In this document: positions 24,172 to 45,562 of the stretch, piece by piece
Layout: each line of letters begins with the position of its first letter
Position numbering within the stretch: the first letter of the stretch is position 1
Assembly (NCBI GenBank): GCA_035538835.1
Contig: DATLJN010000076.1
Location: forward strand, 1-48,540
Length of the DNA stretch: 48,540 nucleotides
Origin: Magnetospirillaceae bacterium
GTDB lineage: Bacteria; Patescibacteriota; Saccharimonadia; Saccharimonadales; EFPC-124
Direction of reading: 5' to 3'
Notes under the pieces: model-generated
Seen by the model: the letters and a program-made list of their open reading frames with translations, nothing else
Told to the model about the DNA's origin: nothing
Databases searched by the model: none
Program-made: the position numbers and the translations under genes

Positions 24172-24239
24172 CAGGTCACCTGTTTGTTACTCATACACGA
24201 TATCATAGTGTCGCTAAAGCTGCCAAGCAAGATGTGCTC

Positions 24240-24261
24240 GGGGCGGGCGCTAACCCGCCCC
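24240..24261 (-). terminator. G+C-rich perfect hairpin GGGGCGGG-CGCTAA-CCCGCCCC after the hydrolase ORF (no T-tract)
   Basis: Read directly. It begins 7 nt downstream of the stop at 24268. Confidence 0.4.
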
Positions 24262-24267
24262 CAAGCG

Positions 24268-24816
24268 TTACCGGCTGAGATATGACGACAAGCGGCGGCT
24301 ATACCACGTAAGTGCCATTGCGATCGTCCAAACATGGCCGCGTGTCGGTAACTGGTGGTTAAACGCCCCAGGCACCACACTGAAGGTCGGCCGCACAATA
24401 TCGTCGAGCCTACCGCGGAACGACCCAATCCGCGCTCGCAGCAGAGGGTCGGCTTGCGAGAACCGCTTATCGAATTCGGCCAACGCAGTATTGAGCAGCT
24501 TGTTCTTACTGTGTTTGAACCGATTGAGCGGCGAACTTATTGCAACGACTCGTCGGATACGATTAGGCCGCAGCAAAAGCAGCAACGCGGCGATGACCCC
24601 ACCCGCGCTGGAGCCGACGATAACGATCTGCTCGCCTCTTGGCAGCGCGTCGATCCAAGCGAGGATCGGATCGAGTCGCGCCTGCAAGTCATCATCGCCG
24701 AGCTGCCAAAAGAACGGCTCGTACCGTGGCTCAAAACCATACAGTCGCCAGACTGGTAGTACCAAGCGTATTCGGAAATCGTGATCCCCCAGACCGCCTA
24801 TCTCGAGTAAACGCAT
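24268..24816 (-). CDS. small alpha/beta-hydrolase-like protein, inserted between rplO and secY
   Basis: Nucleophile-elbow GxSxG in VIVGSSAGGVIAALLL. Visibly more G+C-rich than its flanks. No clear SD. Confidence 0.5.
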   Translation of the reverse strand: MRLLEIGGLGDHDFRIRLVLPVWRLYGFEPRYEPFFWQLGDDDLQARLDPILAWIDALPRGEQIVIVGSSAGGVIAALLLLLRPNRIRRVVAISSPLNRFKHSKNKLLNTALAEFDKRFSQADPLLRARIGSFRGRLDDIVRPTFSVVPGAFNHQLPTRGHVWTIAMALTWYSRRLSSYLSR

Positions 24817-24833
24817 ATCACAACTATACCAAA

Positions 24834-24855
24834 ACGCACCCGTTCCCGGGTGCGT
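24834..24855 (-). terminator. intrinsic terminator after rplO
   Basis: Minus strand reads ACGCACCCG-GGAA-CGGGTGCGT followed by TTTTGG. It lies between the rplO stop (24877) and the hydrolase start (24816). Confidence 0.55.
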
Positions 24856-24876
24856 TACTTGGTTCCATAAAATGCT

Positions 24877-25389
24877 CTAGGCCTTTTTTGGAGTTTTTTC
24901 TGCCTTGTTTTCGGCACGCATTTCAGCTTTGAGCTTGTTTTCTGGCAAGTGCGGTGTTGGCAGTTTCTCGAAGCTACCACCAGCCTTAGCGATGGCCTCT
25001 TGAGCGCCTTTACTTGCACCCTGTACTTTAAGAGTTATTTTACCTTTCACTTCACCGCGCAAAATAACTTTAACGGCATGGAATGGGCTGATGATCAACC
25101 CAGCTTCGGCAAGCGACATGTTATCGGCAGTTTTGCCAGCCATAACGCTGAGCTGGTCGGTGTAAACAACCTGCGCAGGAACGCGAAGACTTTTAAAACC
25201 GGGGAGCTTTGGTACACGCTGCATCAAAGGTCCCTGCCCACCAACAAAGGCTGGTGAGTGCTTTTTACCGGTACGAGCATTCTGACCCTTGGTACCGCGG
25301 CCAGCAGTTTTACCCTGGCCAGCACTAATACCACGGCCAACGCGTTTGCGGTTTTTGTGGGCTTCTACCTGTAAATCGTTCACTTTCAT
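24877..25389 (-). CDS. rplO: 50S ribosomal protein L15
   Basis: KRVGRGISAGQGKTAGRGTKGQ. The start overlaps the rpsE stop (TAATG). Confidence 0.95.
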   Translation of the reverse strand: MKVNDLQVEAHKNRKRVGRGISAGQGKTAGRGTKGQNARTGKKHSPAFVGGQGPLMQRVPKLPGFKSLRVPAQVVYTDQLSVMAGKTADNMSLAEAGLIISPFHAVKVILRGEVKGKITLKVQGASKGAQEAIAKAGGSFEKLPTPHLPENKLKAEMRAENKAEKTPKKA

Positions 25390-26045
25390 TACTTAGTCTC
25401 CTTTTTTGGAGCCTTTTTAGCTGGAGCTTTGGGTGCCACAACTGCTTCCACAGGCGCTTCAGTCTTTTTAGCTGGAGCTTTTTTAACAGGTGGATTCAGC
25501 CAGTTTTCTTCGGCAACGAGGGTACGTAGCGCTTCGATAGTTGCATAGGCGTTGTTTACTTTGTTGTTCGAGCCAAGAGCTTTGCCAAGAAGGTTAGTCA
25601 CGCCGGTGAGCTGCATAATAGAGCGCATCACACCGCCGGCAATAATACCGGTACCGGGCGCAGCGGGCATCAGGAGTACTTTAGCGCCACCAACTTTGGC
25701 ATTAATGTCATGTGGAATAGTCGCTTTTGTGGTAACTGGGAAGGTAATGAGCTGTTTTTTAGCTTTGTCGGTTGCTTTTGCCACAGCCGCTTGCACGTCC
25801 TGGCCTTTTGCAACGCCAACGCCAACGCGCTGCTTGCCATCACCAACGGCCACAAGTGCCTTAAAGCGGAACCGGCGGCCACCTTTTACTACGCGGGCAA
25901 CGCGGTCGATACTCACCACATATTCTTGGAAGATTTTTTCTTCGCGCGGTTCGTTTGAACGGTCGTTCGAGCGACGGCCACGATTTGGTCCACCTTGGCG
26001 GCGATTATCGCGGGGATCAATACTTACTGCTTGTTGTACTGCCAT
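25389..26045 (-). CDS. rpsE: 30S ribosomal protein S5 with Lys/Ala/Pro-rich C-terminal tail
   Basis: VVSIDRVARVVKGGRRFRFKALVAVGDG. Start trimmed to ATG 26045, just after the rplR stop. Confidence 0.9.
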   Translation of the reverse strand: MAVQQAVSIDPRDNRRQGGPNRGRRSNDRSNEPREEKIFQEYVVSIDRVARVVKGGRRFRFKALVAVGDGKQRVGVGVAKGQDVQAAVAKATDKAKKQLITFPVTTKATIPHDINAKVGGAKVLLMPAAPGTGIIAGGVMRSIMQLTGVTNLLGKALGSNNKVNNAYATIEALRTLVAEENWLNPPVKKAPAKKTEAPVEAVVAPKAPAKKAPKKETK

Positions 26046-26046
26046 A

Positions 26047-32376: not shown

Positions 32377-32973
32377 CTATGCCCCCAACCATTCTTCGAC
32401 TGCTTTAACCGCAGGCGTGGTCATAATTAAGGTATCAGCGTTGAGGATAGTAAACACGTTAAGATACGTGGCTTGCACGAGCTTGAGGCCTTCGATGTTG
32501 CGAGTTGCCCGGGTGAGTTCCGGCGTTTTGTTGTCGACAACAATTACGATGTTATCGCCAGCCTTCACTTTTTGTGTGGCGAGGAATGCAGCGATTTCTG
32601 ATGTTTTACCAGTGGTTTTAACATCGGCAACGGTAACAATTTCTTTTGCCTGCGCAGCAAGCGTTAACGCTTGGCGAAGAGCCACGCGCTTAGCTTGTAC
32701 TGGAATGGTCTTGCTGTAGTTTTCGTTGCCAAGCGGCCCGAACACAACACCACCTTTGCGCCAAATTGGGTTGCGGGAGCTACCAAAGCGGGCGCGTCCG
32801 GTGCCTTTTTGTTTCCAAGGCTTCTTACCACCACCGCTTACCTGGCCACGCTTCAGCGTTTTGGCGAGGTTAACTCGGCCGTTCGCCAAATAAGCGTCAT
32901 ATGCGAGCTTAAGTAGCTCATGGTTTGGCACCTCAACAGCAAACACGCTCTTCGGAAGAGTAGTTTCGGCCAT
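32377..32973 (-). CDS. rplD: 50S ribosomal protein L4
   Basis: KPWKQKGTGRARFGS. Confidence 0.95.
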   Translation of the reverse strand: MAETTLPKSVFAVEVPNHELLKLAYDAYLANGRVNLAKTLKRGQVSGGGKKPWKQKGTGRARFGSSRNPIWRKGGVVFGPLGNENYSKTIPVQAKRVALRQALTLAAQAKEIVTVADVKTTGKTSEIAAFLATQKVKAGDNIVIVVDNKTPELTRATRNIEGLKLVQATYLNVFTILNADTLIMTTPAVKAVEEWLGA

Positions 32974-33587
32974 TATTTGGTTCCTCCGATCATAATAAGG
33001 CCACGGCGTGGACCAGGCACAGCACCTTTGAGTCCAATTACTCCGCGGTCAACATCAACAAGAGCGACGACTAGGTTTTTAACGGTGACGCGTTCGGCGC
33101 CCATGCGGCCGGCCATGCGCTTACCTTTAAAGACTTTTTGTGGGTACATCGAGCCAATTGAGCCCGGTTTGCGAACATAGCCATTACCACCGTGGGTGTG
33201 GGCGCTTTCGCTAAAGTTATGCCGCTTAATTGTGCCAGCAAATCCTTTACCCTTGCTAGTTCCTGTTACGTCAACTTCTTCACCGATGGTGAATTGCTCG
33301 ACGGTCAGGGTTGTGCCAACGGCAACATCTTCCGGCAGCGTGTCAACACGAACTTCACGGATGAACTTCGGAGTTGTTTTGCTGGCGGCGACATGGCCTT
33401 TGGTGGCATTGCTCAAGTTCTTACCCATTCCAAACCCAATTTGCACAGCAGTATAGCCGTCTGTTTCAGACGACTTCACTTGAGTCACCGTGCATGGGCC
33501 CGCTTGGATTAATGTTACTGGAATAGCAACACCATCCTCCTGGAGGAGCTGGGTCATACCAAGTTTGGTACCTAATAGCGCTTTCAT
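32973..33587 (-). CDS. rplC: 50S ribosomal protein L3
   Basis: MKALLGTKLGMTQ and GKGFAGTIKRHNF. Start trimmed to ATG 33587, which has AGGAG upstream. Confidence 0.95.
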   Translation of the reverse strand: MKALLGTKLGMTQLLQEDGVAIPVTLIQAGPCTVTQVKSSETDGYTAVQIGFGMGKNLSNATKGHVAASKTTPKFIREVRVDTLPEDVAVGTTLTVEQFTIGEEVDVTGTSKGKGFAGTIKRHNFSESAHTHGGNGYVRKPGSIGSMYPQKVFKGKRMAGRMGAERVTVKNLVVALVDVDRGVIGLKGAVPGPRRGLIMIGGTK

Positions 33588-33706
33588 AGTCGCTCCTATT
33601 GAAAATACTCGGTATGCTACGGTTTCCCTCGTGGCAAAGAGAGCCGGGACCTGTGAGCCTACCAAGATCTTCGTTTAATCTTGATAAAAGTTACCTGGGC
33701 AGTATA

Positions 33707-33724
33707 CCAGAGGCGCACCTCTGG
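33707..33724 (-). terminator. hairpin CCAGAGG-CGCA-CCTCTGG downstream of the 33760..34035 ORF (no T-tract)
   Basis: Perfect 7-bp stem, 36 nt after the stop. Confidence 0.3.
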
Positions 33725-33759
33725 CGTCAAGAAGTTTACAAGATTTTGTTATCCAGGAG

Positions 33760-34035
33760 TTATAAAACAATACCAGCTGGTAAGAAAAACGTAATAATCG
33801 TCATAAGTACAAGGAGCGCATATTCGATTTTGCGGTCGATTTGGAAGTGGTCATGCGAGGCAAAAAGCAGGCCAATCACTAAACCAAGCGGGAACCCATG
33901 AATTAAAAAATCGCCAATCGGGATAGGCTGGCTAAATTTGAGCCAAAATGATCCGAGCACTACATATAACACAAGTTTCAAAAAATACGCGCTGTCACGT
34001 TCGCCACTTTGTTGTTTGATTTTTGTTTTTGTCAT
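33760..34035 (-). CDS. small hypothetical membrane protein (91 aa, about 3 TM)
   Basis: MTKTKIKQQSGERDSAYFLKLVLYVVLGSFWL... is hydrophobic. Start trimmed to ATG 34035 because the longer track ORF overlaps the divergent gene. The SD is weak. Confidence 0.4.
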   Translation of the reverse strand: MTKTKIKQQSGERDSAYFLKLVLYVVLGSFWLKFSQPIPIGDFLIHGFPLGLVIGLLFASHDHFQIDRKIEYALLVLMTIITFFLPAGIVL

Positions 34036-34145
34036 GTCGTTAGGTCTTATTGTAACCAAAACTTTTATGCTTGGCAAACTGTACAGGCCTGCGTATGCTG
34101 GTACTGCCGCCTGCGCCCCCAGCAGGCCGATGTAGGAGGGGTCCA

Positions 34146-34520
34146 TTGTTAACAACCAGAGCACACATCATTAAAGCAGAACGAGCTGTGGTCATCGAAA
34201 CCATCGAACACACAGCACTAAAGCCCGGTGACCGCATTTACTTGCTGGAGTTTGTCGGCGGCGCGGTGAAGCTCAAAAAAACGGGCCTATACGTGCGCAC
34301 CACAAACAGAGGCTCTGAACGAACGATTCGGAGACGCGAAGAAACTGCCGTGCTCATCTTTGTTGCTTGGGACGGCGACAAAGAAGAATCAAGACACCCC
34401 GTTGACAGGCTCGGCCTCATGCTCACCAGCGAGTCGTTCCTTGTTGTAAAATCACTTAAGGGAATCGACTGGAAGGAAGACCGTCCGCTCAGTCGAAGAC
34501 ACCTCCACACTCCCAGGTAA
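34146..34520 (+). CDS. hypothetical protein (124 aa), antisense to the ribosomal operon
   Basis: Strong SD AGGAGG (34134-34139) lies 6 nt before an in-frame TTG at 34146. G+C is moderately elevated. No recognisable domain. Confidence 0.4.
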   Translation: MLTTRAHIIKAERAVVIETIEHTALKPGDRIYLLEFVGGAVKLKKTGLYVRTTNRGSERTIRRREETAVLIFVAWDGDKEESRHPVDRLGLMLTSESFLVVKSLKGIDWKEDRPLSRRHLHTPR

Positions 34521-34564
34521 ATACTCGGCACACAATGCCCGCGCGGGGTGGGACTCCTCCTACT

Positions 34565-34642: not shown

Positions 34643-34972
34643 TTACATGCGGATTTCTGCGTCGCACCCGGCTGGAAGGCTGAGGTTTTGTAGCGAGTCG
34701 ATTGTCTTAGGCGTTGGGCTTAAGATGTCGATAAGGCGCTTATGCGTTCGCATTTCGTAGTGTTCACCACCACGCTGCTTGTAGACGTGCGGGCTACTAC
34801 TGACCGTGTAGCGCGTTTTGCGTGTTGGCAGCGGGACTGGCCCGATGACTGTTGCGCCTGTACGCAGGGCTGTGTCGATGATTTGTTTTGCTGATTGGTC
34901 GATAACTTTATGGTCATAGGCCTTGAGACGGATACGAATCCGCTGTTTTACTTCGAGGGCTTGTGCCGCCAT
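34643..34972 (-). CDS. rpsJ: 30S ribosomal protein S10
   Basis: [21 protein letters not shown] and HKRLIDI. Start trimmed to ATG 34972, which has GGAGAA upstream. Confidence 0.95.
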
Positions 34973-35069
34973 AGTATTTCTCCGGTGTACAGTAACCTCT
35001 GCTCGATTCATGGCTTTGGCAGCTCATGTCTGGCCGAGTTGTCTGTACGATTAATATGATATGAAAACT

Positions 35070-35098
35070 ATTATAGGATACAGCCTCGTTGCTGGCAA
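35070..35098 (-). promoter_or_regulatory. near-consensus sigma70 promoter for rpsJ
   Basis: Minus strand has TTGCCA, a 17-nt spacer, then TATAAT, about 100 nt upstream of the rpsJ start. Confidence 0.45.
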
Positions 35099-35173: not shown

Positions 35174-35347
35174 ATGGTAGACCTCGCCAAGATTGGTGGC
35201 AGCGGCCTGCTAGCGCTGCTCAGCCTACCTGCAGCCAATGGCTGGTTCGATAAAGACTGGGGCATTGGCGTATTCGTGTTGCTGTGGATTGTTTGGGCGT
35301 TGGTGCTGTACGTCGGCTGGCCGATCATTGAGGCCATACTCGACTAA
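35174..35347 (+). CDS. small hypothetical membrane protein (57 aa)
   Basis: Below the track cutoff. SD GGAGAG lies 4 nt before the ATG. Translation is MVDLAKIGGSGLLALLSLPAANGWFDKDWGIGVFVLLWIVWALVLYVGWPIIEAILD, which suggests two hydrophobic helices. Confidence 0.35.
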   Translation: MVDLAKIGGSGLLALLSLPAANGWFDKDWGIGVFVLLWIVWALVLYVGWPIIEAILD

Positions 35348-35407
35348 GTACCGGCATCACCGCAGGTGGCGCGCTCACTGCGCGTCACCTGTTTCATTTT
35401 GTGTAAT

Positions 35408-35441
35408 AAAAAGAGAGCCGCAGGTCGCGGCTCTCTTTTTA
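35408..35441. terminator. bidirectional terminator after tuf (AAAAAGAGAGCCGC-AGGTC-GCGGCTCTCTTTTT)
   Basis: 10-bp stem with flanking A- and T-tracts, 14 nt from the tuf stop. Confidence 0.65.
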
Positions 35442-35454
35442 TTGGGTCGTAAGA

Positions 35455-36642
35455 TTATTTTACGATCTTAGTTACCACACCAGCACCAACGGTGCGGCCG
35501 CCTTCGCGGATTGCGAAGCGTAGACCTTGCTCCATAGCAATTGGGGCAAGCAGTTTTACCTTAAAGGTGATTGTATCACCAGGCATAACCATCTCTTTGT
35601 CGGCTGGGAGTTCGACCTCACCAGTTACATCAGTAGTACGGAAGTAGAACTGTGGTTTGTAACCCTTGAAGAATGGGGTATGACGGCCGCCTTCTTCTTT
35701 GGTAAGCACGTAAACCTCAGATTCAAATTCGGTGTGTGGCGTAATGCTGCCAGGTTTAGCGATAACTTGACCACGTTCGATGTCGTCGCGTTCAATGCCG
35801 CGGAGCAGCAATCCAGCGTTGTCACCAGCTTGGCCTTGGTCGAGCTGTTTCTTAAAGGCTTCGATGCCAGTTACCACTGTCTTACGAGCAGCTTCTTGGA
35901 TACCGACGATTTCAACTTCTTCGTTAATCTTAACGATACCAGTTTCGATACGGCCGGTAGCAACCGTGCCACGACCCTTAATACTAAAGACGTCTTCGAT
36001 TGGCATCAGGAACGGCTTATCGAGTTCGCGCTTTGGCTCTTCGATGTAGTCGTCCATAGCTTTAACGAGTTCCATAATGGCGTCTTCGTATGTAGCGTCG
36101 CCTTCAAGGGCTTTAAGAGCTGAACCCTTAATGATTGGGGCTTCGCGGTCAAAGCCGTTCTTGGCCAGGAGGTCACGAACGTCTTCCTCAACCAGTTCAA
36201 CCAGCTCAGCGTCGGCCATATCCATCTTGTTTAGGAACACAAGAATCTTTGGCACACCAACCTGTTTTGCAAGTAGCACGTGTTCGCGGGTTTGTGGCAT
36301 TGGGCCGTCGGCGGCAGATACAACCAAGATTGCACCGTCTACCTGTGCGGCACCGGTAATCATGTTCTTAACGTAGTCGGCGTGACCAGGCATGTCGACG
36401 TGCGCGTAGTGGCGCTTTTCGCTTTCGTATTCCTGGTGAGAAGTTGCGATGGTAATACCACGCGCCTTTTCTTCTGGTGCGTTGTCGATTTGGTCATACG
36501 CAACTGGTTTGTTAACTGCGCTCGGCATTTTTTTTGCGAGAACGCTAGTGATTGCCGCAGTCAAAGTAGTTTTACCGTGGTCAACGTGACCCATGGTACC
36601 AACGTTGACGTGCGGTTTGCTACGGTCAAATGTGTCAGCCAT
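35455..36642 (-). CDS. tuf: elongation factor Tu
   Basis: [18 protein letters not shown] and NKMD GTPase motifs, with full-length collinearity to EF-Tu. Confidence 0.97.
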
Positions 36643-36713
36643 TTATATGCTCCATTATTTTCTTAATTTCGCGCATGAGGTAGCAGAGCCACCGGATGCG
36701 ACGTATGTTCCAG

Positions 36714-36743
36714 ATTATACAAGAGAAGCCCCCGAGGTGTAAA
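36714..36743 (-). promoter_or_regulatory. sigma70-like promoter for tuf
   Basis: Minus strand has TTTACA, an 18-nt spacer, then TATAAT with a TG extension, about 70 nt upstream of the tuf start. Confidence 0.4.
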
Positions 36744-36760
36744 GACTTTGTACAAAAGCG

Positions 36761-36789: not shown

Positions 36790-36799
36790 TCTCGTGCTC

Positions 36800-37192
36800 T
36801 TATTCGGTCGTGATAGGGACACGACGCGCGCGCCGGCGATTTTGGATCTTCTTTCGCTGGAGCCGCTGTCCTTTGAGTTGTCGCGGGTCGACCAACCTGA
36901 CCAGGCTAGGCCGAAGATCCAACCCAACAACGCGAGCATAGCGCTGCATTGTCGAAAGCCGACCATCCTCGAGAAGGTCCGCCTCGCGCCGCTTAACCAG
37001 CCGCGGCAACCAGTACCACACTGTCGCTCGCCTAAACCAGCCGGGTCTGTGTAGCCAGCCAATTTTGGAAGCAAACTCGTAATCGGTCATACCTAGCGCC
37101 CGGCGCATGGCGTGCAGGTGCGAAACCAACATATAGCGGTTGTACGAATCGACTTGCTCGCCTGACAATACAGGCACAGCGCCGTCGGTCAT
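36800..37192 (-). CDS. XRE-like helix-turn-helix protein with basic C-terminal tail
   Basis: SD GAGGAG is present. LHAMRRALGMTDYEFASKIG...STMQRYARVVGLDL resembles an HTH_XRE layout. G+C is elevated. Confidence 0.45.
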   Translation of the reverse strand: MTDGAVPVLSGEQVDSYNRYMLVSHLHAMRRALGMTDYEFASKIGWLHRPGWFRRATVWYWLPRLVKRREADLLEDGRLSTMQRYARVVGLDLRPSLVRLVDPRQLKGQRLQRKKIQNRRRARRVPITTE

Positions 37193-37269
37193 GGTAACAC
37201 TCCTCAGACTGAGGCCTACAGGGGCACGGTTATAATACGGTTAGTAGCCACAAAAAGCAATTTCAGGAC

Positions 37270-37887
37270 TTAAGCCGCGATCGCTTGGCTTTGAGGACCC
37301 GTATAGACTTCGCGTAAATCGGTTTCGAGTTCACTAATAACTGTGGCCGCCGTGAGCTGTGTGGCATATTCAGCGGCAGTACGACTATCGGCCATTTGGT
37401 TAACCGTATGCTCAAGATAGTCATGCAAAATAACAGCGTAATCTTCTAGCGCGGCTCGTAAATATACGGTTTGGTCAGGCTGTGGATGTTCATCACCTAA
37501 AAGAGATGCCGCGTAGTTTATGGCTAAACTACTACATTCAAAAGCCTCATTGGGGCTAAAAAGGGCATCGGGCGCCGTAATTACGTAGGCAGCTACCCTC
37601 AGTAACAACCGTTCACGTTCTTGAGTAGTGATTTCTGCTGATTTAAGTACACGCACACCATATTCTGCGGGCCGCGGCCTCGGAAGATGGTCGGTAGCCA
37701 GGAACGCCAGCTCTTCGGCCAAGTCAGGAGAAAACCTTAATGCGCGCGCAAATAATCGTTTGAGCGACGCTTCAATTGCTGCAGCATCGCCTTCAGCAAG
37801 CTCAGTAAGGGTGGCCTCGAAGACCGAGTTAATTGAATCCTGTTCTGCCGCTGCCTCGTTGCCGGCCGGTTCTTGTCTTTGTTCCAA
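37270..37887 (-). CDS. hypothetical acidic, predicted all-helical protein (205 aa)
   Basis: TTG start with AGGAG 9 nt upstream. No recognisable motif. Confidence 0.4.
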   Translation of the reverse strand: MEQRQEPAGNEAAAEQDSINSVFEATLTELAEGDAAAIEASLKRLFARALRFSPDLAEELAFLATDHLPRPRPAEYGVRVLKSAEITTQERERLLLRVAAYVITAPDALFSPNEAFECSSLAINYAASLLGDEHPQPDQTVYLRAALEDYAVILHDYLEHTVNQMADSRTAAEYATQLTAATVISELETDLREVYTGPQSQAIAA

Positions 37888-38250: not shown

Positions 38251-38277
38251 CAACCTCCCGCGCGGAGGTTGTTTTTT
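38251..38277 (+). terminator. plus-strand intrinsic terminator with no annotated plus-strand gene (CAACCTCC-CGCGC-GGAGGTTG-TTTTTT)
   Basis: 8-bp G+C-rich stem followed by six T on the plus strand only. It overlaps the stop codon of the minus-strand ORF 38276..38725. Confidence 0.5.
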
Positions 38278-38725
38278 ATAGTCCGCGTAAATCGGCAATA
38301 ATATTTAATAGTTCATCAGCGGTTTCGTGGAGATACATCCACCTTAATTGAGCAATGACACCCTCATCCTGCGTCCCTTCAGGGCCATAAATCAGATCTA
38401 AAAATTTGTCGGCATCATCTAGTTCAAGCCACAACTGTGCTTTTGCAACTTCATAACCTATCCGCGCCCGTTGGTTATTACCCCCTGCAAGGCTCTTTTC
38501 GGCGGTTAGTTCATAACCCTCCAGCAGTTCATGATGCCGTGGATTTGTCTTGTCAAAGCCGTTATCTGCGATGATTTGTGCAACTAGCTGCCGACGCGCC
38601 TCGCCGGCCTGAGGAGATTCTACATAATCCAATACTTCAACAACTGTGCCGAGCCTTTCATTGATGACTTCAAGTTCAGGATCGAGGCGTGCATAATGTT
38701 CGTGCGACTGATCTTGTTCGGTCAT
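38276..38725 (-). CDS. hypothetical acidic helical protein (149 aa)
   Basis: ORF-track frame. There is no SD, but a TATAGT box ends 7 nt before the ATG, so the mRNA may be leaderless. Confidence 0.4.
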   Translation of the reverse strand: MTEQDQSHEHYARLDPELEVINERLGTVVEVLDYVESPQAGEARRQLVAQIIADNGFDKTNPRHHELLEGYELTAEKSLAGGNNQRARIGYEVAKAQLWLELDDADKFLDLIYGPEGTQDEGVIAQLRWMYLHETADELLNIIADLRGL

Positions 38726-38836
38726 ATGTTTACTATATATAAACTTTCAAGAACGTGCAGTATCAATTTCCATTCTTGGAAATTTACAAATAATAAATAA
38801 GTGTTATAATTATAACGTTCTTTGACAAAATAATTC

Positions 38837-38886
38837 GTTACTGGTAGCTGTAAGGATATGGGCATATTCTTACAGCTACCAGTAAC
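38837..38886. repeat. 50-bp near-perfect palindrome (18-bp perfect arms GTTACTGGTAGCTGTAAG / CTTACAGCTACCAGTAAC, extendable to 24 of 25 symmetric positions)
   Basis: Read directly. It lies in the AT-rich divergent intergenic region, ending 25 nt before the SD of the serpin-like gene. Confidence 0.8.
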
Positions 38887-38922
38887 AGCTGGAGTAAGTA
38901 GCAAGACTTGAGAGGAGATCCA

Positions 38923-39882
38923 ATGTCTGGAATCCGAGACTTGGGCCGCACGAGTGGTACTGTCCCCGCCAGCACCGACCTTCCAACAATCACAGGCAGT
39001 ATCGCCTTCACGAACGGGCCCATCGCCCGTGCGCTGAACGAGTACGCCCTGGTCACTGGACTGAGCGGTCTGGAAGCGCTGCAGCTCGTTGGTACCAATC
39101 CCGGTCAGGCCGAGTTGATCGACTGGATCGTCACGCACTACGCGCAGATCGCCCATCTGCGGGATCTCACCTCGCTGGCAAGCCGCGACTACGCGGTGCT
39201 CAACAGCTTCCTGGAGGCCCACGGGTTCTCCCCGCTGTTCACACCGTTTCCTCAAAGCGATGTCGGCATCACCGCGATCCTCGACGCCCCCATGAAGTGG
39301 GTCGAGGCCGGAGAGCGCACCACCATCACCCGCATGGCCGGTAGTCAGCAGGCCACCTACCCCGCGTTCAAGCTCAAGAGCACTGGCGCGAAACGCCAGC
39401 ACCTTTTCGACGCCGGACCCTTCACCGACCGGGTCGTCATCAAAACTCAGAATGGTCACTTCGTCTACTTGGGCATGCTGCCCGAGGATATGGAAGGGCC
39501 GCGCGACGGCGCCGCCGTCCTGAAATTGGCGCGCCAAATGCTGGGAGCTCGGACTCAGGACACCCACGATCCGGCGGGAGTCATTCTGCCGATGATCAGC
39601 TTCGACAACGTCAGCGAGCTGCCGTGGCTCAACGGCCTCGCTGTTGGCAAGAGCGACACCCTTAACCAGTGCCGCCAGCACGTCAAGTTCTACATGAACG
39701 AGATTGGCGCGCGCATCTCCGCTGCTTTCGCCGGCGTGATGTTTCGTAGCGCGCCGCCTGCGCCGTATGTGATCAACCAGCACTTCGTGCTGGCCATCGC
39801 CGACGACACAACGCCAACCACAGTGCTGTACCTGCACCCCGACGATAGTTGGGCTGAGCCGCCCGCTGGAGTCATCCAGTAA
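38923..39882 (+). CDS. serpin-like protein (short N-terminal region), G+C-rich
   Basis: SD GAGGAG lies 5 nt before ATG 38923. The C-terminal ~200 aa are collinear with serpins as recalled. PMKW matches the s3A KGKW region, and MLPEDMEG matches LPDEG. ILPMISFDNVSELPWLNGLAV matches LPKLSI..DLK..L..LG. NEIGARISAAFAG is a hinge-like ExGxxxxAA. YVINQHFVLAI matches 10 of 11 positions of the PROSITE serpin signature as I recall it. Confidence 0.55.
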   Translation: MSGIRDLGRTSGTVPASTDLPTITGSIAFTNGPIARALNEYALVTGLSGLEALQLVGTNPGQAELIDWIVTHYAQIAHLRDLTSLASRDYAVLNSFLEAHGFSPLFTPFPQSDVGITAILDAPMKWVEAGERTTITRMAGSQQATYPAFKLKSTGAKRQHLFDAGPFTDRVVIKTQNGHFVYLGMLPEDMEGPRDGAAVLKLARQMLGARTQDTHDPAGVILPMISFDNVSELPWLNGLAVGKSDTLNQCRQHVKFYMNEIGARISAAFAGVMFRSAPPAPYVINQHFVLAIADDTTPTTVLYLHPDDSWAEPPAGVIQ

Positions 39883-39897
39883 CAATGTCAACGAGCC

Positions 39898-39918
39898 GCC
39901 GGGGGACCCATCCCCGGC
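39898..39918 (+). terminator. G+C-rich hairpin GCCGGGG-GACCCAT-CCCCGGC after the serpin-like gene
   Basis: 7-bp perfect stem, 16 nt after the stop. Confidence 0.35.
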
Positions 39919-39979
39919 AGTTCCCCAGAATCACTCAGCCGCATGGGTGGTTGTGGGGAGCTAACTTAATAAATTCTAC

Positions 39980-40009
39980 AAAAAACACCTCGCAGTTGAG
40001 GTGTTTTTG
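39980..40009. terminator. bidirectional terminator shared by fusA and the serpin-like gene (AAAAAACACCTC-GCAGTT-GAGGTGTTTTT)
   Basis: The stem is flanked by A- and T-tracts, 16 nt from the fusA stop. Confidence 0.65.
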
Positions 40010-40024
40010 CACGTTTCGTGAAAC

Positions 40025-42103
40025 TTATTTCGCGCGTTTGCTAATAATCGCTTCAGCCACGTTGTTTGGCACTTCTTCGTAATGTGCAAGTTCCATACTG
40101 GAGCTGGCGCGACCTTGTGTTGAGCTACGCAGTTCGGTAGTGTAACCAAACATCTCAGCCAAAGGCACCATTGCGGTAATCTCTTTGACGTTACCGGCGA
40201 GGTCTTCCATGCTGTCAATACGACCGCGTTTGCTGTTAAGGCCGCCAATGACATCACCCATGAAGTCTTCGGGGGTAACGACGACGACTTTCATAACTGG
40301 TTCGAGTAGCACTGGCGAAGCTTTTTTAACACCTTCGCGGGCAGCCAGCGCACCAGCCATTTTAAAGGCCATCTCGTTGGAGTCAACTTCGTGATAGCTA
40401 CCGTCGTACAAGGCAACTTTTACGTCAACTACTGGGTAGCCGGCGATAACACCGCCATTCAGGGTTTCTTCGATACCGTTTTTAACAGGGGTGCGATATT
40501 CTTGCGGAACCACACCACCTTTAATCTCGTCGATAAATTCGAAGCCCTTGCCGGTTTCGTTTGGTTCAACGCGGATCCAAACGTCACCGTACTGGCCGCG
40601 ACCACCAGATTGTTTGATGTACTTACCTTGTACTTCGACCATCTTCTTGATGGTTTCGCGGTAAGCCACTTGCGGCTGCCCAACATTAGCTTCGACTTTA
40701 AACTCGCGCTTCATGCGGTCAACAATGATCTCGAGGTGAAGCTCGCCCATACCACTAATGATGGTCTGGCCGGTTTCTTCGTCGGTGTGCACTCTAAAGG
40801 TCGGGTCTTCTTCGGCAAGGCGCTGCAGGGCGATGCCCATTTTTTCTTGGTCGGCCTTGGTTTTAGGTTCGATAGCGATGCTGACTGGTGGATCTGGGAA
40901 GTCGATGCTTTCAAGAACAATCGGATTAGATGGGTCGCACAGCGTGGTACCAGTGGTGGTACCCTTAAGGCCCACAACGGCAGCAATGTCGCCGGCGCCG
41001 ATTTCGGTGATGTCTTCGCGCTTGTCGGCGTGCATTCGCAGCAGGCGACCAACTCGTTCTTTTTCGCCAGTGCTGGCGTTAAAGATATAGCTACCAGCGC
41101 TGAGCTTACCGCTGTACACACGTACAAAAATCAATTTACCAACAAACGGGTCGGTGGCAACTTTAAAGGCAAGACTGGCCATTGGTTCGGATTCGGCAGG
41201 TTTGCGTTCGATTTTGTCGCCAGTCTTTGGGTGTGTGCCCCAAATGCTACTTACATCAAGCGGACTTGGGAGGTAATCAACAACAAGGTCAAGCACCTTT
41301 TCGACGATCACGCCACGGCCATCGCCACCAGTTACAATATAAAATTCACCAGTCAAAACAGATGCGCGGATTGCAGCTTTAAGTTCGGCTTCGGTAATTG
41401 CCGTTTCGCCACCTTCGAGGTATTTCTCGAACAGTGTGTCGTCGGCTTCGACGGCCGCTTCAACCAGCAATGTGCGGGCGTTTTTGCACTTTTCGAGCAT
41501 ATCAGCAGGCACATCGCCTTCGACCAACTCATGGTCGGCGAATTCTTTATAGGTGTAAGCCTTCATGCTGACCAAATCGACAACACCGTTGATTTCCTGT
41601 TCAAAACCGATCGGCAGGTGGATTGGCAGCGCCCGCTTGCTAAGACGCGCGTGGATACTTTCTAAAGACTTGTAAAAGTCCCCACCCGTTGAGTTGATCT
41701 TATTAATAAAGCACACGCGTGGTACGCCGTATTTGTTAGCCTGGCGCCAAACGGTTTCGGTTTGGGCTTCGACACCCATTTTGCCGTCGAACACTACAAC
41801 TGCGCCGTCGAGCACGCGCAAAGAACGCTCAACTTCGGCCGTAAAGTCGATGTGTCCAGGGGTGTCGATAATGTTAATCTTGTGCTCTTTCCAGAAACAC
41901 GTCACAGCAGCGCTAGTAATAGTAATACCACGTTCGCGTTCCTGCTCCATCCAGTCAGTGGTTGTTTCGCCTTCGTGCACAGCGCCAATCTTGTGGCTCA
42001 GGCCGGTTCGGTACAAAATACCTTCGGTGGTGGTTGTTTTGCCCGCATCAATGTGAGCAATAATACCAATGTTACGGAACATGTTTAGGGGGACGTTGGC
42101 CAT
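40025..42103 (-). CDS. fusA: elongation factor G
   Basis: [20 protein letters not shown] and NKIN motifs. The protein is 692 aa and collinear with EF-G. Confidence 0.97.
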
Positions 42104-42201
42104 AAAATCCTCAGTTATGTTATTACTGCTCTTTTTAGAGACATCAAAAAAGAGCGATTTACAGAGAAGTATAGCATAAAACAGATGAGCTTAAAAGGGT
42201 T

Positions 42202-42230
42202 GCGGAGGTGAACGCTAGTGTCACCCCCGC
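42202..42230 (-). terminator. hairpin GCGGAGGTGA-9 nt-TCACCCCCGC (9 of 10 paired) after ORF 42240..43028
   Basis: Begins 10 nt after the stop. No T-tract. Confidence 0.3.
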
Positions 42231-42239
42231 CCCGAAGGA

Positions 42240-43028
42240 TCAGACGACAAACTTGACGGGGACGTCGTACCTGCCGCCTCGTTCGCCTATCACCTCAGCG
42301 TGGTGCCGGTCGCCAAACGGATCAACAAACCACACCACCCCAGGATTCTGTGTTGGAGAACTCACGAGCGGCGCCAGATACAGTGCCGGGCCACTCGTTT
42401 TGGGCTGTAGCGCCTGGAATAGGTGCGGTTGCCGCATATTCATACCCGCCGGCCGCCGCGGCAACAGATATACGCCCTGTGGTACCTGCGGCGAGTGAAC
42501 CGCTGGCCGTGACGTTTGTGCGTGTCTCGGTAAGCGAACATCGAGCACAAGGCCATTCCGTCCGTGCAATGTTGCTTCAAAGACTTGGGCGTTGAGGTCC
42601 CGCAAGGTGGCACGATACTGCCCCCGACGCCCAAGGACGTCAGTCTGCACAAGGACCACCTGGCTCGGTACACCGGCTGGGTGAATACTCAGGAACATGC
42701 CGGTCTGCATAGCTGAACACCATGTCGACCAGTTCGGCCCCGTGTACGTAGCACTTTGAACCTGTTTTACCTTTTTCCTCGCAGTGCCTGGGTAACGAAC
42801 GTCAACCGTCAACTCGCCAGTTGTTTGGTCAACAGTGAATCCAACAAAATTCTTGAGGGTTCCACCGTCCACCAGTCGGCCATGTACGGTAACATATCGG
42901 CCGTCGTTACTTATCGAAAAGCCGTCGATGCGAACATCGCCAATCTCCGGTACGAACATCGGCTGGCGATTCACCGCAAACACCGCAAACTCCTCGGCCG
43001 TGAGCGTTACTACGTCGGGCGATCCCAT
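42240..43028 (-). CDS. hypothetical protein (262 aa), G+C-elevated, no recognisable domain
   Basis: Strong SD GGAGAGGAGAG lies before the ATG. The frame is GC3-rich. Confidence 0.5.
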   Translation of the reverse strand: MGSPDVVTLTAEEFAVFAVNRQPMFVPEIGDVRIDGFSISNDGRYVTVHGRLVDGGTLKNFVGFTVDQTTGELTVDVRYPGTARKKVKQVQSATYTGPNWSTWCSAMQTGMFLSIHPAGVPSQVVLVQTDVLGRRGQYRATLRDLNAQVFEATLHGRNGLVLDVRLPRHAQTSRPAVHSPQVPQGVYLLPRRPAGMNMRQPHLFQALQPKTSGPALYLAPLVSSPTQNPGVVWFVDPFGDRHHAEVIGERGGRYDVPVKFVV

Positions 43029-43101
43029 CTCACTCTCCTCTCCATGGGTTGACGAAATAATATCACATCTGGATATAGTTGAGATAAAAACATAATCTTC
43101 C

Positions 43102-43130
43102 TTGACATATTTTATATTTTATGTTAGTAT
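43102..43130 (+). promoter_or_regulatory. sigma70-like promoter for ORF 43184..43519
   Basis: TTGACA, a 17-nt spacer, then TAGTAT, in the AT-rich divergent region. Confidence 0.4.
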
Positions 43131-43183
43131 TGTATGTATTTGTGGACCCCTCCACGTAGAACGTTGACGGAACAGGAGAGGTT

Positions 43184-43519
43184 ATGGACTACGCACAACA
43201 GCGCAGGCACGCCGAGAATGAGCAAATCATTGTTGGACCGCTCACGCATGTGCCACCACAGCCCACGCCAGAGCCCAAGAAGAAAGCCAACATCCTGGTA
43301 ACGCTGGCAACGGTGCTATACGCGGCCGCCATATTCGTCCTGGTTGTTACGGCGTACCCCCTGGTCCTCATCAGGGAAGCTCCAGACTGGGATCTCAAGG
43401 CCGCGCACTCGTCCTCCATCTTCACCCCGATCTATATCGGACTCGCGGCCTATGTCGCTCTATACACCGGAGCCGTTTGGATCTCCAAAAAGCAACGGCG
43501 AAAAGAGCGCGAAGGGTAG
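43184..43519 (+). CDS. hypothetical membrane protein (111 aa, 2 TM)
   Basis: SD AGGAGAGG is present. Hydrophobic segments are ILVTLATVLYAAAIFVLVVTAYPLVLI and IFTPIYIGLAAYVALYTGAVWI. Confidence 0.5.
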   Translation: MDYAQQRRHAENEQIIVGPLTHVPPQPTPEPKKKANILVTLATVLYAAAIFVLVVTAYPLVLIREAPDWDLKAAHSSSIFTPIYIGLAAYVALYTGAVWISKKQRRKEREG

Positions 43520-43564
43520 AAGGATAGCACCACGGTACAAGTGTGATGACCGAACTCCTGTTCC

Positions 43565-43611
43565 GTCTCACACCCCTAGCAGTAAAATTTTTACTTCTGC
43601 GGGTGTGAGAC
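43565..43611 (+). terminator. long hairpin (11-bp perfect arms GTCTCACACCC / GGGTGTGAGAC)
   Basis: Read directly. It lies between the stop at 43519 and the rpsG-proximal terminator. Confidence 0.4.
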
Positions 43612-43645
43612 AAAAAAACACTCCTCGATCTGGGGAGTGTTTTTG
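43612..43645. terminator. bidirectional terminator after rpsG (AAAAAAACACTCC-loop-GGAGTGTTTTT)
   Basis: 7-bp stem with A- and T-tracts, 15 nt from the rpsG stop. Confidence 0.6.
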
Positions 43646-43659
43646 TTGCCGAGCAGTTT

Positions 43660-44139
43660 TTACGTGCGGGCAAAGTGGGCAAAAGCGCGGTTGGCCTCGG
43701 CCATTTTGTGGGTGTCTTCCTTTTTTTTGAAGGCGGAGCCGGTTTGATTGATACTGTCAACCATTTCAGCAGCCAAGCGCTGAGCAATTGGCACTCCTTT
43801 GCGGCTGCGCGCAGCTTGCACAAACCACATAAAGGCCAGATGCTGTTGGCGATGACCACTTACTGGAAATGGTATCTGATAGTTAGCACCACCAACGCGG
43901 CGGCTTTTAACTTCCATGCTTGGGTAGACATTTTTAATTGCTTTCTCAAACACAGCCAACGGTTCTTCGGCTTTCAGCTTTTTAGCAGCAAGCTCCATCG
44001 CTTCGTATACTGCAGATTCAGCAACTTGCTTTTTACCGTTCAGCATGACTTTGTTAATCAAACGCTGCACGAGCACGCTGTTGTATTTGCGGTCGGGCAT
44101 CAATTTGCGTTGCAGCGATTTAGTCTTTTTGCGTGGCAT
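43660..44139 (-). CDS. rpsG: 30S ribosomal protein S7
   Basis: MPRKKTK... and NVYPSMEVKSRRVGGANYQIP. Confidence 0.95.
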   Translation of the reverse strand: MPRKKTKSLQRKLMPDRKYNSVLVQRLINKVMLNGKKQVAESAVYEAMELAAKKLKAEEPLAVFEKAIKNVYPSMEVKSRRVGGANYQIPFPVSGHRQQHLAFMWFVQAARSRKGVPIAQRLAAEMVDSINQTGSAFKKKEDTHKMAEANRAFAHFART

Positions 44140-44552
44140 TATTTGCTCTCCTTCTTGGCGCCGTATTTACTACGAGCTTTTTTGCGATCTTTCACGCCTT
44201 GGAGGTCGAGTGTACCACGAACAATGTGGTAACGTACGCCTGGAAGGTCAGGCACACGACCGCCGCGCACCAGCACCACCGCGTGTTCTTGCAAGTTGTG
44301 GCCTTCGCCGCCAATGTAAGCCCAGATTTCGTGGCCATTGGTAAGACGCACGCGGGCAACTTTACGGAGAGCCGAGTTAGGTTTACGTGGAGTGCGGGTA
44401 GTCACCTTAATACATACGCCGCGTTTAAAGGGCGATTTTGTGTCGAAGTAACGGCCTTTGAGCGTATTTTGGATACGGCCCAGGGCAACAGATTTGCTCT
44501 TTTTGCTCGCCGTTTTGCGTGGCTTGCGAATGAGCTGGTTAATAGTTGGCAC
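44139..44552 (-). CDS. rpsL: 30S ribosomal protein S12
   Basis: [28 protein letters not shown] and [16 protein letters not shown] start. Confidence 0.95.
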
Positions 44553-44744
44553 TTTTGTGCTTCTCCTTATTACAGTTTAACCGTTGGCGCAGTGGTAAGC
44601 AGCGCTACTTGGTTCTTACTTATGCGGTCATTTTATAAGAATGTACACGCTCTTATAAACTCGGACCGAAGTGAAACTCACCCATTACGATATCAGATTT
44701 AACTTAAAAGTTCAAGTCGAAAAAATTGCCAGGAACATACTTTT

Positions 44745-45467
44745 ATGATAAAGTACGACAATCCCTCGATGAAAGGCGGATCAACTATGGGAAGCTTGAG
44801 GATCGTGCAGCTGACTAAGCTCGCACACCCACTCGCGCCGGGGACGGTAGCGTTTAGCCTCGCTCCGTCGTCGCAGTGTGAACATGACAATCACCACCGT
44901 AACCCGTGGAGCTTACTCCGTTTCACAGGGGTTGCCCAAGCAAGCGGCACTGTCAAGGTCGGAAGCAACGGCAAGGACCGGACCTACACATCGCTGTGGA
45001 ACCGCTACCTTCTATTCAAGGTCGAACCACGCGCCATTACCGAACTCAAAGCTGATGACGTGCTGGTCGAGGGCGACTTCGTCGCCGCGTTCTCCTATCC
45101 GTGCGCCAGGGCACTACCCTTCATGTTTGCCGGTCCTGCCTGGTTGACCACAGAAGGGTTCAAAGCCTACCGCACCGACCTCGACCCCTTCGGCAGCAAG
45201 CTCTGCTTCACAACCAACCCTGCCGGATGGCTCTTGGTGGCGGCGGAGTGGAACGTGCCGCTCGACCCTCAAGGTCTCGAGCAGTGGCAGGAGGTCATAC
45301 TCTACGACTACGAAGACGGGAAAGCCAACGCACGCACCTTTAGCCAGTTGAACGACGGCTTCGTGGGTTTCGCGGGAGGCGCAGGCGGCATAGGCATTGA
45401 ATGTCTTGGAAAGTCCCACTGGCTCTTCCGCCATGTACGCATTCCCCGTGTTGTCAGCTTGCCCTGA
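44745..45467 (+). CDS. hypothetical protein (up to 240 aa), G+C-rich, no recognisable domain
   Basis: ORF-track frame. G+C-rich coding starts near 44790, so ATG 44787 (MGSLRIV...) or ATG 44769 are alternative starts. It converges on rpoC. Confidence 0.45.
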   Translation: MIKYDNPSMKGGSTMGSLRIVQLTKLAHPLAPGTVAFSLAPSSQCEHDNHHRNPWSLLRFTGVAQASGTVKVGSNGKDRTYTSLWNRYLLFKVEPRAITELKADDVLVEGDFVAAFSYPCARALPFMFAGPAWLTTEGFKAYRTDLDPFGSKLCFTTNPAGWLLVAAEWNVPLDPQGLEQWQEVILYDYEDGKANARTFSQLNDGFVGFAGGAGGIGIECLGKSHWLFRHVRIPRVVSLP

Positions 45468-45470
45468 CCC

Positions 45471-45497
45471 GTGGCCGCCGCCCTACGCGGCGGCCAC
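45471..45497 (+). terminator. G+C-rich perfect hairpin GTGGCCGCCGC-CCTAC-GCGGCGGCCAC
   Basis: 11-bp stem starting 4 nt after the stop at 45467. No T-tract. Confidence 0.45.
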
Positions 45498-45515
45498 ACC
45501 CAAAACTTATCAATC

Positions 45516-45547
45516 AAAAACACCCGGTCGTAGTGCCGGGTGTTTTT
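45516..45547. terminator. bidirectional terminator after rpoC (AAAAACACCCGG-8 nt-CCGGGTGTTTTT)
   Basis: 7-bp stem with A- and T-tracts, 16 nt from the rpoC stop. Confidence 0.6.
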
Positions 45548-45562
45548 GTGTTGTCTTTATTT

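Follow-up and report, generated by a model that had tools for sequence, protein, structure and literature searches.

We analyzed a 48,540-bp contig of a metagenome-assembled genome (DATLJN010000076.1, locus tags VM581_), hereafter the window, for the organization of its transcription and translation genes and for the small open reading frames (ORFs) that separate them. The core genes rpoC, rpsL-rpsG, fusA, tuf, rpsJ, rplC to rplO, secY, infA, and those of the alpha operon lie exclusively on the minus strand. The contig is labeled "Magnetospirillaceae bacterium" at NCBI, and many Saccharibacteria genomes of the same kind share 75 to 80% fusA identity with it. It is probably mis-binned, the core genes being those of a member of the Saccharibacteria. 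From about 9.3 kb to its end the contig has 51% G+C, and its first 9.2 kb have 64% G+C. An independent Logan assembly with an identical fusA, apparently from the same organism, reproduces the rpsL-to-fusA stretch, inserted ORFs included.

Anatomy of the junctions

The initial annotation had singled out five junctions in this gene cluster as holding one to four extra ORFs each, and all five are present: rpoC|rpsL (44553-45562, one ORF), rpsG|fusA (42104-43659, two ORFs), fusA|tuf (36643-40024, four ORFs), rpsJ|rplC (33588-34642, two ORFs), and rplO|secY (24172-24876, one ORF). A sixth junction with the same layout, tuf|rpsJ (34973-35454), had not been counted and holds an ORF of 57 amino acids (aa), insT_57. 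The classical contiguous str, S10, and spc organization is not found here; gaps of 482 to 3382 bp separate the genes, and strong intrinsic terminators are predicted after rpsG, fusA, tuf, rpsJ, and rplO. We refer to these junctions as slots and to their content as cassettes.

The borders of the core units were compared with those of close relatives, taken from the 90% protein cluster of the window fusA and located on contigs of 0.4 to 1.1 Mb; loci of relatives carry L-numbers (e.g., L084, L166-L168, and L171). The core proteins of these relatives are 89 to 95% identical to those of the window and their flanking core DNA is about 76 to 84% identical, and a metagenome scan with fusA returned nothing closer than 79%. 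Nucleotide homology is limited to blocks made of a promoter, the gene or genes, and in some cases a terminator. The blocks start 30 to 150 bp 5' of the core unit, spanning the predicted promoter, and end at or just past the stop codon or terminator, so that units and promoters are conserved and the intervening DNA is not.

The unit upstream of the rpoC|rpsL slot is rpoC (45563..48520, minus strand), recognized from its ORF and translation, cut at its 5' end by the contig end, and 92 to 93% identical to its counterparts in L166-L168 and L084. The rpsL-rpsG unit (43660..44552, minus; rpsL 44139-44552, rpsG 43660-44139) is preceded by a promoter-like sequence at 44630-44659, and the nucleotide block kept in relatives begins at about 44679-44699. 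The fusA gene is a unit of its own (40025..42103, minus), with a conserved block that begins 33 to 59 bp 5' of the start codon. Its leader contains a hairpin, GCUCUUUUU...AAAAAGAGC (42128-42155, minus), which lies partly within the nucleotide block conserved with relatives and may be a regulatory leader structure. The tuf unit (35455..36743, minus) has a promoter-like site of its own, which matches the consensus at 11 of 12 positions (36714-36743), and its conserved block begins at 36727-36745 in three relatives. The next unit comprises rpsJ (34643-34972) and a promoter-like site at 35070-35098 (together 34643..35098, minus). Finally, rplC with its promoter-like site at 33701-33730 (32973..33730, minus) heads the uninterrupted block from rplC to rplO, and its conserved block begins at 33731 in all three relatives compared.

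A hairpin flanked by an A-tract and a T-tract lies within about 15 to 45 bases 3' of rpoC, rpsG, fusA, rpsJ, and tuf. Folding against shuffled sequences bore out the terminators that the initial annotation had placed directly after the first four genes, and added the one after tuf: the five have folding z-scores of -4.2 to -10.5, and 0 or 1 of 200 shuffles folded equally well. They are the bidirectional terminators of rpoC (45515..45548, -21.2 kcal/mol, z = -6.8), rpsG (43614..43644, z = -5.0), fusA (39981..40008, z = -4.2), and tuf (35405..35443, a perfect 17-bp stem, z = -10.5), and the terminator of rpsJ (34612-34639, z = -5.3); that of rplO lies at 24835-24854. Three terminators share the frame AAAAACAC...GTGTTTTT, of which a fourth copy follows rpsI (four occurrences in the window, zero expected); this frame represents a kind of terminator native to the organism and not a cassette end. 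Upstream of rplC, 18 nucleotides (nt) repeat one arm of the tuf terminator, which is about what chance would produce. Taken with the conserved, promoter-bearing stretch upstream of each gene, the terminators agree with the earlier proposal that fusA, tuf, and rpsJ are separate transcription units, as predicted here. In cultivated Saccharibacteria, the promoters of tuf and rpsJ and the terminator of tuf function as stand-alone genetic parts (Wang et al. 2023, PMC10633639).

Between the terminator and the stop codon of the converging plus-strand ORF lies a second, G+C-rich hairpin, unrelated in sequence from slot to slot. This part of the proposed layout holds in that such a hairpin is present at each of these five junctions and that four of the five have clear folding stability (z = -2.5 to -8.0); the exception, after fusA, folds no better than shuffled sequence (z = -0.9). 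The hairpin after the ins1_240 stop (45470..45498, plus, -29.2 kcal/mol, z = -4.5) has no T-tract, and nucleotide homology with L084 extends through it. A long hairpin with 23-nt arms separates the rpsG terminator from the ins2_111 stop (43565..43611, -30.5 kcal/mol, z = -8.0), and further hairpins lie by ins3_324 on the fusA side (39896-39920) and after tuf (35362-35392, z = -3.5). The convergent orientation of the plus-strand ORFs is not significant as a statistical signal. Searched for structured RNAs, the spacers gave nothing: Rfam returned only two tRNAs at the gathering threshold and only chance-level matches at E ≤ 1.

Genes in the slots

The single ORF of the rpoC|rpsL slot, ins1_240 (44745..45467, plus), converges on rpoC and encodes a mostly beta protein without a Pfam match (G+C content at third codon positions [GC3], 0.70). 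Only 3 relatives exist among 1.84 billion representative proteins, and its AlphaFold2 model (mean predicted local distance difference test [pLDDT] score, 68) has no significant match in the PDB. A relative with 36 to 39% identity occupies the same junction in L084/L085, whose rpoC is 93% identical. In L166-L168, the equivalent position is taken, with unchanged orientation, by a family of 244-aa proteins, and neither phmmer nor profile-profile (hhalign) comparison detected homology between it and ins1_240.

In the rpsG|fusA slot, ins2_111 (43184..43519, plus) converges on rpsG, has two hydrophobic segments and a GC3 of 0.70, is alone in its 90% protein cluster, and has no counterpart in L166-L168. 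An A+T-rich divergent region (43029-43183) separates it from ins2_262 (42240..43028, minus), a Pfam-less ORF that is codirectional with fusA (GC3, 0.61). In L166-L168, the same place and orientation are taken by a 245- to 251-aa family, for which hhalign gave a probability of homology with ins2_262 below 1%.

The fusA|tuf slot is the richest. ins3_324 (38923..39882, plus), described below, converges on fusA (GC3, 0.78). It is followed by an A+T-rich divergent promoter region (38726..38907), in which a near-perfect palindrome of 24 nt (38837-38886, 96% complementary, 2-nt spacer) may be an operator, and by ins3_149 (38276..38725, minus), an acidic, helical ORF of native-like composition with a hairpin at 38251-38271. 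The same slot of L167 holds a 190-aa ORF with 33% identity to ins3_149. In the window, the next ~390 bp (37888-38275) contain no convincing ORF and end, on the plus strand, in the stem and T-tract at 38251-38271; they may encode a small RNA or be what is left of a lost cassette. Farther on, ins3_205 (37270..37887, minus) is Pfam-less and native-like in composition, and it is not homologous to the membrane-anchored 200/205-aa family at the equivalent position in L167/L168. Closest to tuf, ins3_130 (36800..37192, minus; GC3, 0.66; terminator at 36761-36789) looks like a helix-turn-helix protein from our reading of its sequence and a weak match to SlyA; in L168, the 131-aa ORF immediately preceding tuf shares 35% identity with it, and a 159-aa ORF of L166 is related to it.

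The tuf|rpsJ slot holds insT_57 (35174..35347, plus; HVI69496.1 at NCBI; GC3, 0.71), a small membrane ORF that converges on tuf. Between rpsJ and rplC lie ins4_149 (34071..34520, plus), a possible ORF of borderline composition that converges on rpsJ and whose start and coding status are uncertain, and ins4_91 (33760..34035, minus), a small membrane protein gene of native composition. The exact sequence of ins4_149 is absent from the protein collection; L166/L167 have convergent ORFs of 129/171 aa in its place, and these show no similarity to it. ins4_91 is 80 to 81% identical in L166-L168 and is also found at rpsJ|rplC in L001-L005 and L015. The rplO|secY slot contains ins5_182 (24268..24816, minus; GC3, 0.65; own hairpin at 24236-24266), a small alpha/beta-hydrolase (Pfam Abhydrolase_1, E = 2e-7) that is 71% identical to an ORF at rplO|secY in L171, where its GC3 is 0.55. 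Judged by their hydrophobic segments, ins2_111, insT_57, and ins4_91 are predicted to be small membrane proteins. Apart from the ins5_182 hydrolase, no slot ORF of the window has a match in Pfam, PHROGs, NCBIfam, or PADLOC; a defense-system reading of the slots likewise found no PADLOC match.

ins3_324 looks like a compact, divergent serpin. The profile of its family matches residues 311 to 372 of PAI-1 without gaps (E = 2.4e-4), a segment covering the hinge motif, the reactive-center loop, and the C-terminal s1C/s4B/s5B strands, so that the parts by which a serpin is recognized are shared with PAI-1. Of 60 Foldseek matches at E ≤ 0.001, nearly all of the best 50 are serpins or entries that contain a serpin, at TM-scores of about 0.3 and with a low-confidence AlphaFold2 model (pLDDT, 55). 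At about 320 aa the protein is shorter than typical serpins, and it has no Pfam serpin match at E ≤ 0.1. Its 11 relatives, at 53 to 61% identity, include none from a named actinobacterium. On other contigs, the homologs are G+C-rich single genes at unrelated loci, with GC3 values of 0.74 to 0.99 against surroundings of 48 to 58% G+C.

Slots in close relatives

The loci L166-L168 cover the junctions from rpoC|rpsL to rpsJ|rplC, tuf|rpsJ included, and all five are occupied, in the order rpoC, 1 or 2 ORFs, rpsL-rpsG, 1 to 3, fusA, 1 to 3, tuf, 1 or 2, rpsJ, 3 or 4, rplC. None of their 24 slot proteins has a Pfam match, and the GC3 of the slot ORFs is mostly 0.64 to 0.93 in loci of 52 to 53% G+C. 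Positional homologs of window genes span a wide range of identity: 80 to 81% for ins4_91, 71% for ins5_182, 36 to 39% for ins1_240, 35% for ins3_130, and 33% for ins3_149. No counterpart of ins3_324 or insT_57 was detected in the close relatives, and cryptic homology between window cassettes and the L166-L168 families at the same positions was not supported by profile-profile tests. Among L166-L168 themselves, slot proteins are 28 to 39% identical, versus 92 to 100% for rpsL, fusA, tuf, and rplC. The retained 30 to 40% identity, the conserved lengths, and the order GC3 > GC1 > GC2 (G+C at the third, first, and second codon positions) show that constraint acts on the slot ORFs and that they are real genes.

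The fusA|tuf slot contains about six families with a patchy distribution over four genomes. The serpin-like family is found in the window only, the 149/190-aa family in the window and L167, and the 200/205-aa membrane family in L167 and L168, at whose place the window has a different 205-aa protein. Such patchy content is hard to explain without gain and loss. Between rpsJ and rplC, the relatives carry a pair of genes absent from the window, a DUF3152 gene and a gene of 258 to 266 aa (L166 15976-17480; L167 16803-18307; L168 17511-19039). In the window, infA directly follows secY (22474-22749), without adk or map, and in the close relative L171 the same junction (5426-6670) holds a Pfam-less 414-aa ORF; secY|infA is another variable slot of the cluster.

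The initial annotation had opposed foreign cassettes to a situation in which the same ORFs occupy the same junctions throughout the clade with the composition of the core genome. We find an intermediate state: ORFs do stand at the same junctions and some belong to the same families, but their composition is not core-like.

Slots in distant relatives

Window proteins were mapped onto 80 fusA-centered loci, one genome per species, 24 of which are from Saccharibacteria. Among the Saccharibacteria, junctions wider than 400 bp are common at fusA|tuf (14/21), tuf|rpsJ (10/17), rpsJ|rplC (7/11), rpsG|fusA (9/21), and rpoC|rpsL (5/15), the widest measuring 7.5 kb, and rpsL|rpsG (0/21) and rplC|rplD (0/10) never reach that width. 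In the other tier, composed mostly of genomes from outside the Candidate Phyla Radiation (CPR), the corresponding counts are 0/37 for rpsG|fusA, 2/25 for fusA|tuf, 1/16 for tuf|rpsJ, and 2/17 for rpsJ|rplC, and these four junctions are nearly always shorter than 250 bp. The gap ORFs of distant Saccharibacteria are mostly unrelated to each other and are not elevated in G+C. Those with Pfam matches are ordinary cellular genes (CTP synthase, alpha-amylase, class-V aminotransferase, VanY, and histidine kinase), and no integrase or transposase is found among the 25 of 31 matched Pfam families listed. In most of these genomes, tuf and rpsJ are followed by strong terminators; fusA, rpsG, and rpoC have them where the junctions are open and lack them where the genes abut. 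The "cut" superoperon is a property of the phylum and not an event in the genome of the window.

Composition and mobility

Native genes of the window (n = 40, supported by homology) have a GC3 of 0.509 ± 0.045, with a maximum of 0.584. The statement that most inserted ORFs are richer in G+C and GC3 than the flanking genes was upheld in GC3 and codon usage comparisons with these native genes: 7 of 11 inserted ORFs are GC3 outliers (0.61 to 0.78). For ins1_240, ins2_111, ins2_262, ins3_324, ins3_130, and ins5_182, GC3 z-scores range from +2.2 to +6.0 and codon usage lies beyond the native range; ins3_149, ins3_205, and ins4_91 are native-like or A+T-richer, and ins4_149 is borderline. Mean GC1/GC2/GC3 values are 0.61/0.445/0.69 for the GC3-rich cassettes, 0.58/0.40/0.53 for native genes, and 0.69/0.49/0.75 for a G+C-rich element at 1-9180 of the window (see below), so that the G+C excess of the cassettes lies mainly in third codon positions. 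Such a relation among the three positions would be expected for genes from a genome of about 58% G+C. The excess would fit either genes of such a genome or a local force on synonymous sites; it is not the pattern of a partly ameliorated actinobacterial gene. The relatives all show the GC3 excess despite their saturated synonymous sites, and it would have to be kept up by continuing import or by a local force such as GC-biased gene conversion. Outside the ribosomal cluster, a 127-aa membrane ORFan (9427-9810, minus; GC3, 0.70) adjoins tRNA-Thr, and GC3-rich ORFans are accordingly not restricted to ribosomal junctions.

Searches with Pfam, PHROGs, NCBIfam, and PADLOC detected no recombinase, transposase, or integrase domain in or beside the slots, and the cassette borders in the window share no direct or inverted repeats and no end motif. 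Known element types were considered in turn. An integron array was rejected because there is no tyrosine recombinase near the slots and the hairpins, which lie next to ordinary terminators, vary in both sequence and architecture. For an insertion sequence, a miniature inverted-repeat transposable element, or a transposon, a transposase domain is missing and no paired inverted repeats bracket any cassette. The features of a tRNA-linked integrative element are found only in the separate element at 1-9180 and in none of the cassettes, and a concatenated protein query gave no match that would point to a plasmid or phage origin.

Other features of the contig

The first 9,180 bp (64% G+C) encode a type IV coupling ATPase, a Replic_Relax protein, an N6/N4 DNA methylase, a short resolvase-domain protein, and a large serine recombinase, and are predicted to be an integrative conjugative element of the actinomycete type. 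The ATPase is 81% identical to that of Allorhizocola rhizosphaerae, and all named matches are from Actinomycetota. Positions 1416-8405 share 72 to 74% nucleotide identity with a syntenic A. rhizosphaerae element, and a further 307 bp (8629-8935) share 66%; the recombinase of that element likewise adjoins a tRNA gene. In the window, the recombinase ORF ends within the 3' end of an intact tRNA-Tyr gene (9143-9228), which is followed by tRNA-Thr (9247-9323) and by Saccharibacteria genes. No independent contig spans this junction, which is either a genuine integration into a Saccharibacteria chromosome, i.e., a host-to-epibiont transfer, or a chimeric join at the tRNA. In Saccharibacteria context, a set of CapC, CapB-like, and PGA_cap genes with a CHAP-domain gene (13738-17784, plus) apparently serves the synthesis of a poly-gamma-glutamate capsule.

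Discussion

We predict that the rpoBC-str-S10-spc genes of Saccharibacteria are organized not as one superoperon but as a chain of separately promoted and terminated units, namely, rpoBC; rpsL-rpsG; fusA; tuf; rpsJ; rplC to rplO; and secY onward. In the genus-level clade of the window, every slot between these units holds one to four small, lineage-restricted genes. Some slot genes appear to have been inherited in place while diverging very fast, and others differ without detectable homology, which points to turnover in fixed slots. In our opinion, the slots are probably old, permissive spacers that act as flexible gene slots, with turnover through transformation and recombination and a layout shaped by selection for insulation. 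DNA would be taken up by natural transformation and would be integrated by double crossover in the highly conserved flanking genes, making a dedicated mobility machinery unnecessary. The passages on transformation in PMC10633639 describe Saccharibacteria as naturally competent and as integrating linear DNA with homology arms of about 1 kb. The repeated layout of bidirectional terminator, hairpin belonging to the cassette, convergence, and divergent promoters would be a residue of selection, because only insulated insertions would be tolerated beside very highly expressed genes.

Several points weigh against this proposal. Four-fold degenerate sites between the compared genomes are near saturation, and undetected homology may thus reflect extreme divergence and not replacement. 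No genomes of the same species were found, so that the comparison is between species and the recombination event itself is something that we infer. The unit borders of the window organism are predictions from its DNA. Under a coin-flip model, convergence at five of six junctions has a probability of about 0.11, and the slot ORFs of relatives are mostly codirectional. Finally, flexible gene slots as such do not account for slot ORFs that stay rich in GC3.

A variant in which the spacers are dedicated hypervariable loci of the lineage, swapped by transformation across diverged species thanks to the most conserved of flanks, strikes us as rather unlikely; they would carry factors of the epibiotic lifestyle, such as the compact serpin and the small membrane proteins, and frequent recombination would maintain their GC3, by GC-biased gene conversion or by repeated import from a pool of about 58% G+C. 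We are similarly doubtful of a purely vertical history, in which the genes entered once in the ancestor of the clade and then evolved very fast under weak or diversifying selection, with occasional loss and no continuing exchange. Position, orientation, and length are indeed kept, as in the convergent 240- to 244-aa proteins at rpoC|rpsL and the codirectional 245- to 262-aa proteins at rpsG|fusA, and the two rpoC|rpsL families track the core phylogeny, grouping the window with L084 and L166-L168 together. With synonymous sites saturated, fast-evolving proteins could become unrecognizable, and the L166-L168 slot proteins have already fallen to 28 to 39% identity next to core proteins at 92 to 100%. 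However, vertical descent sits poorly with the patchy families of the fusA|tuf slot among closely related genomes and with serpin-like homologs at unrelated loci in other genomes, and it requires an extra force for a high GC3 to outlast synonymous saturation.

The initial annotation had suggested host-derived genes or an undescribed insertion mechanism, and neither idea has fared well. Repeated capture, at intergenic sites, of DNA belonging to actinobacterial hosts of high G+C or to the mobile elements of such hosts would fit the GC3 and codon usage of seven ORFs, which are nearer to those of the 64% G+C element at 1-9180 than to those of native genes, as well as the actinomycete type of that element and the life of cultivated Saccharibacteria on Actinobacteria, as described in passages of PMC10633639. 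Yet no cassette has an actinobacterial homolog or a plasmid or phage match (ins1_240 has only 3 relatives, and the 11 of ins3_324 include no named actinobacterium); the GC1 and GC2 of the cassettes (0.61 and 0.445) are near native values (0.58 and 0.40) and far from those of the element (0.69 and 0.49), the opposite of what amelioration predicts; and the slots and several of their families are common to relatives. We therefore regard host capture as improbable. A site-specific insertion mechanism or small mobile element aimed at the terminator hairpins that follow essential genes would explain why five cassettes begin, in the same orientation, directly after a bidirectional terminator, and ins2_111, ins3_324, and insT_57 are GC3-rich ORFs without counterparts in close relatives. 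Nevertheless, the slots of the window and of the 24 and 4 related genomes neither contain nor adjoin a recombinase, transposase, or integrase gene (for the distant ones, among the Pfam families listed), the cassette borders have no direct or inverted repeats in common, the sequences of the second hairpins are unrelated, and the slot genes of relatives are mostly codirectional and include ordinary housekeeping genes. With junctions open across Saccharibacteria and all occupied in four close relatives, we consider a special insertion event very unlikely. Chimeric joins at the junctions, an artifact of assembly or binning that the Magnetospirillaceae label and the 64% G+C segment at one contig end might bring to mind, are extremely unlikely given the repetition of the rpsL-to-fusA stretch with its inserted ORFs in the Logan assembly, the same slot organization on the 0.4- to 1.1-Mb contigs of relatives, and the conserved promoters and terminators that flank each cassette.

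Flexible gene slots have precedents. The minimal mobile elements of Neisseria place different whole genes between fixed, conserved flanks. Likewise, Oliveira et al. 2017 (PMC5635113) described hot spots that are free of mobile elements, are diversified by recombination in flanking core genes, and are more common in transformable bacteria. The slots share the features of such hot spots: conserved flanks, content that differs between the same flanks (with the caveat of divergence), and no integrase, transposase, or terminal repeats. Like both precedents, they are fixed intervals between core genes that hold different whole genes in each genome, and the phylum is naturally transformable. They differ in that their flanks belong to the most conserved operon cluster of bacteria, with several slots inside what is usually a single operon; in that our comparison is between species, from which we infer recombination; and in that the cargo consists uniformly of small, GC3-rich ORFans. 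An opening of the same supercluster is on record for Proteobacteria, where its operons are separated by insertions according to the relevant passages of a 2019 study (PMC6735719). The two cases are alike in that insertions opened an ancestral cluster and that terminator-promoter arrangements are important at unit borders, as far as those passages go. Compared with what they describe, the Saccharibacteria breaks also fall within the str (rpsG|fusA and fusA|tuf), S10 (rpsJ|rplC), and spc (rplO|secY) operons and affect almost every possible border simultaneously. The genetic parts in PMC10633639 support separate transcription of tuf and rpsJ in the phylum, and the cassette described there was integrated by natural transformation, although at a different locus; the passages concerned make no mention of ribosomal-cluster spacers or their gene content. 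We conclude that the finding falls within a known class, in which conserved core genes are separated by flexible gene slots, and gives no evidence for a new kind of mobile element, whereas the comparative picture is new to us.

If the slots do function in this way, the ribosomal cluster, a backbone of CPR phylogeny and binning, also accumulates and turns over lineage-specific genes. The slots would then be short, easily amplified loci, accessible with primers in rpoC, rpsL, rpsG, fusA, tuf, rpsJ, and rplC, through which the accessory genes of uncultured Saccharibacteria could be sampled, and they would offer natural, insulated insertion sites near strong promoters for genetics in cultivated strains. 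The lasting enrichment of the slot genes in G+C also poses a concrete, testable puzzle that bears on recombination and gene flow in the reduced genomes of epibionts.

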